Positions 1,723 to 30,469 of a stretch of 64,000 bases of DNA are shown piece after piece. Location of the stretch: contig OZ024740.1 in the NCBI GenBank assembly GCA_964016885.1, positions 252,464,001 to 252,528,000 on the forward strand, in the 5' to 3' direction. Position 1 is the first letter of the stretch. The number at the start of each line of letters is the position of its first letter. The position numbers were made by a program, and so were the translations under genes. The DNA comes from Eledone cirrhosa. Taxonomy: Eukaryota. The notes under the pieces are model-generated. The model had not been told where the DNA came from. It saw only the letters and a list, made by a program, of their open reading frames with translations, and ran no database searches.

Positions 1723-1913
1723 TTTATATACATATATATATACATATACATATATATATACATATATATATATATATACATATATATACATATATATATA
1801 CATATATATATATACATATATGTAAAGTTATATTTAAAATTGTTGGGTTACAACTAGTAAATATTTATAACTGATATAAAAGCACTCGACAAATATTTGG
1901 AGTATATTTACAA

Positions 1914-1979
1914 TATTTTGTCTGATGAAGGCATAGCATATTGTTAATATGATATCCCCGAAATATATATAATGAAATA
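1914..1979 (+). ncRNA. Minimal type I hammerhead ribozyme motif (degenerate stem II)
   Basis: Stem I TATTTTGT/ATGAAATA, CTGATGA 1922-1928, GAAA 1960-1963, palindromic stem III ATATATAT, TA site; same family as 30470-30534. Confidence 0.6.
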
Positions 1980-2314
1980 GATATGGTTTTATAAATATAG
2001 TTTTCCATTTATTTAATATTGTATATATACATATATATATATATATATATACATATATATATATATATAAATACATATATATATATATAAATACATATAT
2101 ATATATATATAAATACATATATATATAAATACATATATATATATATATAAATACATATATATATATATATATACATATATATATATATACATATATATAT
2201 ATATACATATATATATATATACATATATATATATATACATATATATATATATATACATATATATATATATACATATGAAATATAAGAATCAAAGAACTGT
2301 TCAAAACATTATTG

Positions 2315-2361
2315 TGCTTACAGCTGTTTCCTCCAAACCGAGGTTTGGATTCTTCGGAGCA
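2315..2361 (-). ncRNA. PLE-associated hammerhead-like motif (variant core CCGAAGA)
   Basis: Mirror copy of 7715-7761. Confidence 0.65.
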
Positions 2362-3807
2362 ATTTATTAATGCATGGACAGTTATATGACCTCCCCTTCA
2401 GCCGAGAGACATACCAATACATATTCAAACATTGATACATATTCAAACATTGTGGGTCAACATTCATTACAGAATTTAGAGTGGCAGTACACACTTCGAG
2501 ATTACATTTATATTAATAGGTACAATCAAAAATCAAAAATATAGGTTAAAATACAACATGAAGATAAGCGGTTATATAGTGCAAATGTTATATGTGTGGC
2601 ACGCATGTGCGTCTTGATTATATAGTGTGGCAGAGAGATATGTGTGGTAGAGGCACTTAGGTAGGTAAATAAGAGTGTTAGGTTGGTAGATCTGGTGGCA
2701 AATTCTTTATATGATTGATATAGTCTGTGTGTGGAGAAATATTATAAGCATTAAAGATAGTGCAAGCATTAAAAGTGTTATAAGTAATGGAGATGCACAG
2801 CGCAGGGATGTCAAGTATTTCATGTACTTCGGCATTTTCATGGTCAGGGGAGTGTATTTTTCGATTATATGCCCTTCACGTAATCCACGACAATCCAGTT
2901 AGAGATCGTAGTCTGGTGTTCTTTAGTTCGATACAGGAGGTTGTTACGTTTCTAGAAACGCCATTGAATACCGCCCGGAAGTGTGTGTGTGTGGCAAAGG
3001 GGAGTTAATGCGTGCGGGGAGGTAACTCTGGGGTTTCTATATCTAGCCATTAAAATGTGTCCCAATATAGACTCTAAATTCTATGGTGATGCGCATCCTC
3101 CAAGAGAGATTTTTAAAGCATAAAGTGTATTAACTATAGAGTAGTTTAATTAAGTTATGCTGAAGGTGGTCATATTATTATGGTGGATTAACCCATCTTA
3201 AGGTGCCACAAATGGAAATTATAGATGATGAGCGAGGATTCTAAATTAATGATCTCTGTGGTTGTAGTCTGCTCATATGACCAGGCGCGGTGATTGCAGG
3301 CTTGCTTCAGGACCCAATGATCTCTGGTAAGATCTGGGTCATCGCTTGCTACATTTGATGTCGAAAGAAAATCATCCCCAGGCCGGCCAAAGGTCAAACC
3401 GCAGTCCTCACGACCCCTCTCTGACCGTCAGATCATCCATATACGTACAACCCGCCCGGCAGTTGCAATGCATTCACTCACTGCGCTCAGCAGTCCGGTC
3501 CTACTGGTCAACAGCGCTACTCGATTAAATCATTTTACATCCGTCTAAGGAAGGTGTTTCCTCTGCACAACACTATCCGACCAATCAATTCATGCTCAAA
3601 TTACCCTTAGAGCGGTGTAGTGCCGTTCAAGTGGGTGGATGTTGTCACGCCTGCCGTAGAGGTATAAATGGGTATTCTCCCTGCGAAGGGTTCCAGAGGG
3701 ATGTCGTTGTTTGTGTTATAATGGATCAGTTAGTGTTGGGTATGTAGTATAAGGTGTGTCTCTGGTGTTTGATGCTAGATGTGGTGTTAGGTTCCAGTCC
3801 GACCTTG

Positions 3808-28580: not shown

Positions 28581-29243
28581 TCTATGTATATGTGGGTCTC
28601 TATATATCGAAATGTATAATTTGAATACATTCTATGAATGAACTCATCTAAAAGGGTTGTTTTACGGTGTATGCTTTAGATATATTCTTAAGAAAAACTT
28701 TAAACATTAAGACGTTATAGTAAACAAAGTTATATTTTAACAGTCACAACTGTATAACAGGTGGATTTATAAAATATATAAATTTTATAACTTACTATAA
28801 ATAATATAAGGTTCTCTTATAATCTTAACATTTTTTTATCATCTTAACTTTTATAACATTTAATCAATAGAACTATCTACATTACAAATAAATCAATTAA
28901 TTTTCCCTCACGCTGTATTGCTATTACTAAGAAGAGTTTTTCTTCAGTAAAATCTCTGAACATTCCTATATTTTAAACATATGTTTTGTTATTTCTTATG
29001 AGTTTTATTGTTAATTGAAAAATTAATAATTAATTGTTGGTTGATGATTAATAATAAATTTATGTAAGGTTATATAATAATAACATATATTTTAATAATA
29101 TTTTTTGATAGTATGTATATATATTTTTTGATAGTATATATATATATATATAAATACGTAGGTCCCGGGTTGAGTCGGGGATAACCACAGTAAGTAAGGT
29201 ACTCAATACATGGCAGAGTAAAATTTTTTTATTTTATAGAAGG

Positions 29244-29294
29244 AGCTTCTACAGGACTAGTACTGTTTCATTCAGATGAAATCTTCAGGAAGCT
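29244..29294 (-). ncRNA. Type I hammerhead motif (mirror copy)
   Basis: Exact reverse complement of 29878-29928. Confidence 0.78.
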
Positions 29295-29877
29295 GGGTGT
29301 CATATTAAGTTCTGGTATTTATACATTTAGGTAGTGGCAAGGGAGGGGTGGTGGATGGGGGGGGGGGGGGTATTTAGATACACAGGACCACTTCATGGCA
29401 CAGGCCGTTTTTTCTATGGGGAGTGGTCAATTTTACTAAAACACTCTGGCCACCTGTGGCTTGTATGTTAACTTGACCACTCACCCCAGTCTGTGCCATG
29501 ATTCGGTCTTGTTAAATGTTTAATTTCTATTACCAACCCACCTAAAAAATTTCCCTACTATATATCTGTTGAATTACTATTCTTGGGGTTTTTATTTATT
29601 TATTTATTTTATTTTTTTTTTATTTATTTATTTATTTTTTTTTTTATTTATTTCTTTATTTCTTTATTTATTTTATTTATTTATTCATTTATCTATTTAT
29701 TTATTCATTTATTTATTTATTTACTTATTTCCAAAAGCACTCTGGCTAATTGACCACTCCCCATAGAAAAAACGGCCTGTGCCATGAAGTGGTCCTGTGT
29801 ATCTAAATACCCCCCATCCACCACCCCTCCCTTGCCACTACCTAAATGTATAAATACCAGAACTTAATATGACACCC

Positions 29878-29928
29878 AGCTTCCTGAAGATTTCATCTGA
29901 ATGAAACAGTACTAGTCCTGTAGAAGCT
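29878..29928 (+). ncRNA. Type I hammerhead motif
   Basis: AGCTTC-CTGAAGA-T-TTCA(TC)TGAA-T-GAAA-CAG(TACTAGTC)CTG-TA-GAAGCT. Confidence 0.78.
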
Positions 29929-30469
29929 CCTTCTATAAAATAAAAAAATATATATATAAATATATATATATGAGTGTGTATATATATATTCTTTTAATAA
30001 TATATAGATCTCGATTTTTAATTTATAGATCTCAATAATTTAATCAAATTTAAACATTAGATGAATTTCTTCGGTTACTACTATCTATTTATTTATTTAT
30101 TTATCTATCCACACTAACTCATCCACTATATATTTATCTTTTCGCTTCATCATCTCATAAAATTACGTTAATACAATCACTCTCTCACTTAGGGTTTTCT
30201 CTCTTTCTTTTGTTTTTTCTATTCCTTTTCCTTTTCTTTTCTTTTGTTCTCCTCCTTTGGGTTTGCTCTTTCTTTCTCCTTTTCTCTTCTTTTTTTTTCC
30301 TATTCCAACGGCTTAATTTAAATGTATGGGATTTAAACCTCTCCGACACTAATTTGCATAATAGACCAATAATAAAATTAGTAACCCCACTATCCGGGAG
30401 CTTCCAACAGACATGGTCGCATTCATTTAAGGGTATGTCAATATTTGTTTATAAAACTGATCTATATTA

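Follow-up and report, generated by a model that had tools for sequence, protein, structure and literature searches.

The 64,000-nucleotide (nt) stretch of the Eledone cirrhosa genome analysed here (assembly GCA_964016885.1, contig OZ024740.1, positions 252,464,001 to 252,528,000 of the forward strand; hereafter the window) is AT-rich animal DNA in which TA microsatellites, fragments of RTE-type LINEs (long interspersed nuclear elements) and tRNA-like short interspersed nuclear elements (SINEs) are abundant. It contains five insertions that carry hammerhead ribozyme motifs and are each built of two arms pointing outward from an inversion junction: E1 (1828-2022), E2 (2273-7803), E3 (15162-19678), E4 (22182-22800), and E5 (29158-29949), the limits being those of a first-pass annotation of the same sequence. 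Results of our analysis indicate, with a probability that we put at roughly 70%, that all five were made by a Penelope-type reaction, and that the non-coding units of E3 and E4 likely borrow the enzymes of Penelope-like elements (PLEs) in trans. The outward arms noticed in the first-pass annotation are real, as is evident from self-comparison in the case of E2-E5 and from comparison with a second copy of its family, F1, in the case of E1.

The presence of hammerheads in all five insertions was confirmed as well. A structural type I descriptor, run on the window and on 20 shuffles of it, detected 21 motifs in the former and one in the latter combined, with at least one motif in each of E1-E5, including E2, in which the core is a variant. 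The Rfam scan was dominated by microsatellite-microRNA matches and missed most hammerheads; among the matches listed (150 of 213), the only hammerheads were the ten motifs of E3 (HH9, 37.7 bits, below the gathering score of 52).

In none of the five do the arms end at one and the same point of the template; both ends lie behind the predicted hammerhead cut: at +51 and about +138 in E1, +46 and +208 in E2, +235 and +301 in E3, +213 and +321 in E4, and +27 and about +95 in E5. The offsets (87, 162, 66, 108, and 66-70 nt, respectively) take the form of an extension at one end of each insertion, of 66-162 nt vs. 30-40 nt of the published Penelope tail. These staggered ends may be regarded as the common mark of E1-E5, analogous to that tail. 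The start sites appear to be fixed, because the ends of the two F1 copies agree within 1 nt, and the near end of E4 corresponds to position +233 of E3, i.e., it is homologous within 2 nt to the end of E3 itself at +235. The stagger of the E4 family in sequencing reads is 38 nt and matches the published tail in size.

A PLE studied in vitro was found to cut and extend both strands of an AT-rich target, and to start at two internal sites, which gives the tail, with neither primer homology nor ribozyme cleavage being needed (Frangieh 2024, PMC11167929). Such a two-strand, two-start reaction accounts for the outward arms, the staggered ends, the little or no TA overlap, and the retained downstream sequence of the insertions described here; as it needs no ribozyme cleavage, it also fits the variant hammerhead core of E2. 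In the mechanism that we propose, the GIY-YIG endonuclease would nick both strands of a self-complementary TA array, and each nicked 3' end would prime cDNA synthesis at one start site of an RNA template that would be uncleaved, multimeric or circular. Two internal sites of the hammerhead-bearing RNA would serve as starts, one per AT-rich target strand, and both cDNAs would be joined head to head, sometimes via a microhomology of 5-6 nt. A downstream cDNA halting near the upstream start would give barely overlapping arms (E1), one running past the upstream start would leave a hammerhead in both arms (E2, E3, and E5), and a circular or tandem template could yield a concatemer (E3) or a circular permutation (E4).

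Non-coding units of E3 and E4

The left arm of E3 (15162-15530, minus strand, 369 nt) contains one hammerhead (15390-15434) and ends 235 nt behind the cleavage site, while in its right arm (15525-19678, plus strand) a 469-nt non-coding unit with one hammerhead is repeated 8.9 times in tandem; this arm ends 301 nt behind the cleavage site. The left arm is 99.2-99.7% identical to the tandem units, which differ from each other at a handful of variable columns. The two arms share a junction microhomology of 6 nt (15525-15530; chance 0.002 by composition). The unit is strongly structured in the predicted fold (z -8.9).

The left arm of E4 (22179-22394, minus strand) reads B-D-A in terms of the blocks of a 428-nt cycle (A-C-B-D) and holds the closing junction of that cycle, and its right arm (22395-22800, plus strand) consists of blocks A-C-B, contains a hammerhead at 22551-22593, and ends 213 nt behind the cleavage site. 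The inverted blocks agree over 85 nt at 97.6% and over 105 nt at 96.2%, and the junction is blunt (microhomology of 0 nt). The units of E3 and E4 can be aligned end to end, with 294 identities over 418 aligned positions and a local alignment score of 230 vs. 54 for the best of 100 shuffles. The insertions, taken in the first-pass annotation as five unrelated ones, therefore represent four families, with E3 and E4 belonging to one superfamily.

The longest stop-free stretches of the E3 and E4 units are 61 and 67 aa, and neither unit matched any of 120 PLE proteins at E<0.1. Their GC content is 0.36-0.37. E3 has 10 hammerhead motifs and E4 has one, and structure prediction recovers the hammerhead core and its stems in both. 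By their sequence features, they fall within the definition of non-LTR retrozymes (PMC7229834).

Public reads of four runs (at most three samples, a restriction-site-associated DNA (RAD) library among them) were mapped to the region 20070-24515; the listing covered 15 of 169 joints and 24 of 2832 loose ends, and reads bearing TA tracts were cut. The median depth of the E4 family was about 52-fold (contigs) and about 40-fold (raw reads) that of the neighbouring PLE open reading frame (ORF), a ratio of depth and not of copy number. The family was found also in a run from a second organism (organism B). As many as 3851 and 5080 raw reads end at 22251/22252, i.e., 38 nt behind the near end of E4, with mixed AT-rich flanks (agreement 0.34-0.35); the high depth together with these mixed flanks at one end indicates many dispersed copies of the E4 family. 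Copies of the family located elsewhere read on B-D-A-C in reads and contigs, and in contigs block A is followed by C, as expected from the cyclic unit. Among the joints listed, 22275/22546, 22276/22526, and 22278/22573 (59-78 reads, one start each) connect an antisense tail piece with a sense piece and would thus represent inversions at other loci. One further listed joint connects the preferred end of the family with a PLE ORF, in the middle of the latter and at a site that is AT-rich but not TA. Within E4, two joints of the "opposite strand" type were rejected as inversions, as the reference itself is inverted there.

These properties bear on the explanation that the non-coding elements are 5'-truncated tips of coding PLEs, i.e., their pseudo-long terminal repeats (pLTRs), with the E3 tandem expanded locally after insertion and with no mobilisation in trans. 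Local amplification of PLE termini has indeed been proposed (bioRxiv 10.64898/2026.07.22.740005), and Cervera 2014 (PMC4209133) interprets as truncated PLEs both solo hammerheads and those located on opposite strands at a distance of 100-700 bp. However, E4 holds the closing junction of its cycle in one arm at a locus with no tandem array, other copies of its family run B-D-A-C in reads and contigs, and E3 shares the cycle with it and is homologous over the whole length. Since E3 and E4 are closed non-coding units, they are not 3' tips of a coding element. We consider this explanation unlikely for the five insertions as a whole, although parts of it may apply to E1 and E5, as discussed below.

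E2, E1, E5, and the coding Penelope-like elements

The left arm of E2 (2273-5502, minus strand) is a 5'-truncated Hydra-type PLE with an ORF, a 3' region of 1.45 kb, and a hammerhead. The ORF fragment (3811-5502, minus strand) is stop-free over 564 aa and encodes a reverse transcriptase (RT) core (YRDD), a thumb, asparagine-rich linkers, the CxCX5C motif, and a GIY-YIG-type endonuclease (CxxC..E, N..CxH). The right arm (5503-7965, plus strand) starts in the thumb region and reaches its far end 162 nt beyond the previously assigned limit of 7803; this extension (7804-7965) is absent from the left arm, and its outer end is set by the TA array alone. The sequences 2273-4573 and 5503-7803 differ by two mismatches in 2301 nt. 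Hammerheads are present in the left arm at 2315-2361 (minus strand) and in the right arm at 7715-7761 (plus strand; predicted cleavage after 7757); both have the core CCGAAGA instead of CUGAnGA, in a type I fold with one base changed. The ORF is intact over 564 codons and is devoid of the N-terminal part of full-length relatives, therefore E2, regarded earlier as the autonomous member of the system, is not an autonomous copy. It is likely a cis product of a Hydra-type PLE.

A second Hydra-type PLE ORF fragment (22915-24090, plus strand; 391 aa, 35% identical to that of E2) lies beside E4, with its 5' end at a TA-like array. E2 is thus not the sole coding PLE sequence of the window. Neither an inversion nor, by the descriptor, a hammerhead was found in association with the second ORF in the window. 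In 24091-24515, read depth falls about 20-fold past the stop codon of this ORF, and the sequence there may not be the usual 3' end of the family. In both ORFs, a YRDD/YHDD core is followed by YVG..R..H endonuclease motifs, and 455 relatives were retrieved at E<=0.001. The CxCX5C linker is present in both and in 105 of 120 relatives, and so are CxxC and CxH beside the endonuclease E and N (117 and 115 of 120, respectively). The N-terminal motifs RWK, DK[TS], and DKG occur in 41, 85, and 5 of the 120 relatives; both window ORFs are truncated below them. Pfam support for the PLE domains was weak (GIY-YIG, E 0.027), and a search of solved structures (PDB) with the PLE proteins as queries gave no match. 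It is on motifs, rather than on an RT tree, that we assign E2 and the ORF 22915-24090 to Hydra-clade PLEs; consistent with the described preference of this clade, (TA)n is present at both E2 ends and at the 5' end of the second ORF. Asparagine-rich inserts are located in the E2 protein between the RT core and thumb, and between the thumb and endonuclease, as in rotifer PLEs (PMC3846280).

E1 has no self-repeat, and its inversion is visible only in comparison with the second F1 copy (30463-30660, plus strand; 82-84% alike), which is collinear, has a hammerhead at 30470-30534, ends at a TA run, and served as the reference. The left arm of E1 (1825-1919, minus strand) represents the downstream (tail) part of F1, namely, the reverse complement of the part that follows the hammerhead part; the latter forms the right arm (1915-2022, plus strand), where a type I hammerhead with a palindromic stem III (1914-1979, plus strand) has its predicted cleavage after 1971. 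The right arm stops 51 nt behind the predicted cleavage site, where on the template the left arm starts; the two overlap by 7 nt.

The left arm of E5 (29158-29746, minus strand) contains a (TAAA)n tract, a hammerhead (29244-29294), and an extension of 66-70 nt, the outer end of which is set by the TA array alone, while the right arm (29748-29949, plus strand) contains a hammerhead at 29878-29928 and ends 27 nt behind the cleavage site. The arms (29223-29432 vs. 29748-29949) are identical except for a C-run.

The microhomologies reported earlier at the junctions were recovered in two cases, i.e., in E3 and in E1, where they amount to about 5 nt (1915-1919; chance 0.017 by composition), as inferred from the diverged second copy. 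At the E2 junction (5503), an 11-nt direct repeat is present, and the uninterrupted sequence is absent from the window, so a microhomology is not scorable there, nor is it in E5 for the same reason; E4 has none.

E1 and E5 may each be either a truncated PLE 3' tip or a non-coding family. They may be PLE tips because their ends are 27-138 nt past the hammerhead, at the point where the consensus sequences published for Hydra PLEs stop (PMC8557442). No tandem, closing junction or ORF is present in the 480-590 nt of upstream sequence available for them. The uncertainty about the real 3' end of the 22915-24090 family, resulting from the drop of depth behind its stop codon, adds to the case for tips, while the lack of any PLE protein match near E1, E3, E4, and E5 speaks against it. 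The proposal that PLE enzymes mobilise ribozyme RNAs in trans is therefore retained for E3 and E4, which are closed non-coding units with the geometry of E2 and cannot be tips, and is left in doubt for E1 and E5; the diverse set of small ribozyme RNAs originally envisaged is reduced to one proven non-coding superfamily.

TA arrays, controls, and alternative explanations

A (TA)4+ run is present within 12 nt of nine of the ten outer ends of E1-E5, and the tenth (E1 left) adjoins an interrupted TA array, in agreement with the setting noticed initially. The corresponding values are 13 of 45 ends of RTE and SINE copies (with approximate limits taken from BLAST) and 7.2% of 3000 random positions; the difference between the insertions and the RTE/SINE controls is significant (Fisher p 0.0006, or p 0.003 with 7 of 8 ends when the two ends set by the TA array alone are left out). 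The TA overlap at element ends is 0-4 nt, and a target-site duplication is not readable in the TA arrays, the flanks being direct. The arrays 1725-1821 (left of E1), 2023-2272, and 7966-8195 share polarity (TACAT 8, 13, and 7 times, ATGTA not once in any of them) and are, judging by their sequence, one array split by E1 and E2. Similarly, the array left of E3 (14838-15161) has the TAAATG variant and polarity in common with 14432-14515 and with 19680-20062, the latter being the direct, unmirrored continuation of the left array on the right of E3. E1, E2, and E3 are flanked on either side by arrays that agree in variant units and in polarity, which indicates insertion into arrays already present.

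Inversions were found in 5 of 10 hammerhead elements of the window and in none of 23 RTE/SINE copies (p 0.001), or in one of 23 (p 0.005) if an RTE pair described below is counted. In the five remaining hammerhead elements (11632, 13136-14431, 30470, 39980, and a decayed one at about 39.8 kb), no inversion was detected, with the reservation that a non-overlapping inversion of the E1 type is invisible when there is no second copy.

Several observations weigh against the proposed origin of the insertions or narrow its scope. The analysis concerns a single window, and the five insertions had been chosen for being inverted. RTE pieces (1223-1726 and 60618-60773) and a SINE (14517-14837) also lie inside TA-type arrays, therefore TA targeting, although enriched, is not exclusive, and a TA flank alone is no fingerprint. 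An RTE pair, 61043-62890 (minus strand, RT/3' part) and 63012-64000 (plus strand, endonuclease part), points outward with a 120-nt microsatellite between its members; it is cut by the window end and is a possible RTE inversion. On a cycle of about 450 nt, offsets such as those of E3 and E4 (66 and 108 nt) may well arise by chance; improbable by chance are only the homology of the E3 and E4 ends and the preferred read end. The far end of E4 itself (+321) differs from the preferred end of its family (+251), which in reads has mixed AT-rich flanks. The short side of the E4-family inversion joints comprises 24-27 letters, and each joint has a single start, which in a RAD library leaves room for chimeras; as TA-tract reads are cut, read mapping is no proof of TA targeting and no fair RTE control either, and the seven joints listed in the RTE control stretch 20070-22150 are all skips. 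The E3/E4 units share nothing, in sequence comparison, with the 3' region of either window PLE. Among the tails behind the hammerheads, a shared motif is clear only in E3/E4; the 21-nt likeness of E2 and E5 (p 0.005, one of 28 pairs) is weak after correction, and neither it nor that of E2 and E3 (p 0.02) was used as evidence. Finally, eight of nine predicted Xenopus retrozymes failed to cleave (bioRxiv 10.64898/2026.07.22.740005), and the ribozymes of the window are predicted ones.

In an alternative explanation, TA arrays would be fragile sites that capture any abundant RNA, with the retrozymes copied by another RT (of RTE LINEs, by L1-type twin priming) or inserted through break repair, and with the likeness to E2 coming from the target. 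RTE fragments are the commonest retroelements of the window, of 23 RTE ends eight are in contact with TA runs, and the pair at 61-64 kb points outward. In L1 twin priming, non-overlapping inverted arms are the classical product, and such are the arms of E1. On the other hand, the RTE copies end in (ATG)n tails, which none of E1-E5 does, and no clear inversion is present among the 23 control copies. In addition, the fixed internal ends and the 38-nt stagger match the PLE tail, which is described as unique to PLEs (PMC11167929). We find capture at fragile sites quite improbable. Still more so is the possibility that the inverted arms arose in the assembly, as artefacts of fold-back reads, or through palindromic duplication at the DNA level: while the E2, E3, and E5 arms are 99.2-100% alike and no read or contig is shown spanning any junction (read mapping covered E4 only), the flanking arrays keep their polarity on both sides, so that the direct, unmirrored TA flanks argue against a fold-back of DNA or read, the arms are unequal with unique middles, those of E4 differ at several sites, those of E1 do not overlap, and the E4-family inversion joints are present in another individual.

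Other elements of the window include a partial-tandem non-coding element (13136-14431, plus strand) with TA arrays on both sides and two long-stem-II hammerheads (13208-13328 and 14131-14251); its unit is about 740 nt once an internal SINE is removed, and its hammerhead stem II holds about 90 nt. The non-coding sequence 10617-11270, located between TA arrays, has a 101-nt terminal direct repeat and a CUGAUGA core; it failed the type I descriptor and was rejected as a hammerhead element, being a PLE-like partial tandem with no recognisable ribozyme. The region 39720-40105 contains two different outward hammerhead motifs, a decayed relative of that at 11632 (minus strand, about 39801-39890) and an intact-looking one (39980-40043), and is a chimeric insertion or two old insertions. 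RTE fragments often stop at TA arrays (1223-1726 and 8195-8967; 20061; 59513; 60773; 62890) at points where other copies have no TA, and TA arrays may arise inside RTE copies. The sequences 1223-1726 and 8195-8967 are perhaps one RTE copy split by the array with a loss of 503 nt, or the former is an independent truncated insertion. A second kind of LINE (24926-28230; endonuclease, RT, and C-terminal C2H2 zinc fingers) is frameshifted and has its 5' end at a TA run. In 30848-31114, a palindromic 49-nt tandem repeat precedes a short inverted repeat, after which another repeat starts. Exons of a host gene with epidermal growth factor (EGF) repeats are located on the minus strand in 44055-52828 (about 44.2-44.4, 49.5-49.7, and 52.4-52.6 kb).

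Relation to known systems and significance

Hydra-clade PLEs are characterised by the CxCX5C linker, CxxC/CxH endonuclease motifs, 3' hammerheads, a preference for (TA)n, and a tail at one end (PMC8557442). E2 resembles them in the linker, the endonuclease motifs, and the (TA)n target, as well as in the C-terminal position of GIY-YIG and in the inverted arm, and its variant hammerhead near the 3' end and its one-end extension may correspond to the hammerheads and the tail of the clade; an inverted 5'-truncated copy was noted in the case of Penelope-13_HM of this clade, which also includes Hydra-1_Obim (PMC8557442). It differs from them in the 1.45 kb between the stop codon and the hammerhead, in its length of more than 3.2 kb though truncated (vs. 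the listed 1.1-3.0 kb), in the C at position 4 of the hammerhead core, in an extension of 162 nt rather than 30-40 nt, and in asparagine-rich linkers (PMC8557442). An enzyme of the Hydra clade is the most likely partner of the retrozymes and is somewhat favoured by us; the alternative is the Naiad clade, PLEs of which are present in cephalopods and also prefer (TA)n (PMC8557442).

The mobilisation of animal retrozymes by PLEs was proposed in 2020 (PMC7229834) and was argued by Li, Clavereau & Pollet (2026) from co-occurrence and pLTR homology (bioRxiv 10.64898/2026.07.22.740005). E3 and E4 resemble the non-LTR retrozymes of these two papers in having tandem non-coding units of a few hundred nt with a GC content of 36-37%, a type I hammerhead per unit, a strong fold, a high copy number (in the case of the E4 family), and PLEs as the proposed mobiliser. 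In contrast, inverted arms, staggered ends, and microsatellite targets, all three of which E3 and E4 show, are not described in the accessible text of these papers. Moreover, while the published case, in so far as the text is accessible, rests on co-occurrence, shared hammerheads, and pLTR homology, E3 and E4 have no detectable likeness to the two PLEs of the window.

The in vitro studied PAc Poseidon element (PMC11167929) and E1-E5 have in common the cutting and extension of both strands, two internal RT starts behind the hammerhead, and a reaction that calls for neither primer homology nor ribozyme cleavage (all inferred in our case), as well as an AT-rich target. However, the starts of PAc Poseidon are in the 5' end of the ORF and close together, while those of E1-E5 and of the E4 family would be in non-coding RNA, 38-162 nt apart; a trans template is not among the results in the accessible part of that work. 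Trans-mobilisation between pLTRs was described in the case of rotifer PLEs (PMC3846280). In the Adineta vaga Penelope elements, the cargo is flanked by the pLTRs of the PLE itself and short target duplications are visible, whereas none is readable in the TA arrays of the window; in addition, that paper favours self-priming as the source of inversions (PMC3846280), and we propose two-strand priming. The giant squid genome paper, in its accessible text, only counts hammerheads (PMC6962438). Our literature search for evidence from retrozyme insertion sites and for cephalopod hammerhead or Penelope work, which did not reach most subscription papers or the supplements of the preprint, found none beyond the papers cited here.

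The movement of retrozymes by PLEs is thus an already published hypothesis, and the parts found here, i.e., a Hydra-type PLE with the inverted and tailed insertion usual for it, and non-LTR retrozymes, belong to kinds already known. The novelty, modest but useful, lies in retrozyme insertions that bear the PLE fingerprint with conserved end positions and so support this hypothesis more directly. Since 2020, it has been an open question which enzyme moves animal retrozymes; in comparison with co-occurrence and likeness, on which the argument has been based so far, insertion geometry is evidence of another and more direct kind. The locus offers a testable pair of two young families, one of a Hydra-type PLE and the other of an abundant retrozyme whose ends have been mapped, and, as an in vitro PLE assay exists (PMC11167929), the question is accessible at the bench. 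The priming by both target strands also provides a simple account of the frequent inversions of PLEs.

A more far-reaching and rather doubtful reading, which we offer tentatively, is that retrozymes carry their own conserved pair of Penelope-type RT start sites, in the form of a tail signal of structural nature that surrounds a hairpin, and that Hydra-type enzymes recognise its fold and not its sequence, the units being 60-70% alike and unrelated in sequence to the pLTR of the helper. Several unrelated ribozyme RNAs (E1, E3/E4, E5, and the element at 13136-14431) would then be moved into TA arrays by two-strand priming. If true, this would be the first demonstration, from insertion sites, of the enzyme class that moves animal retrozymes.

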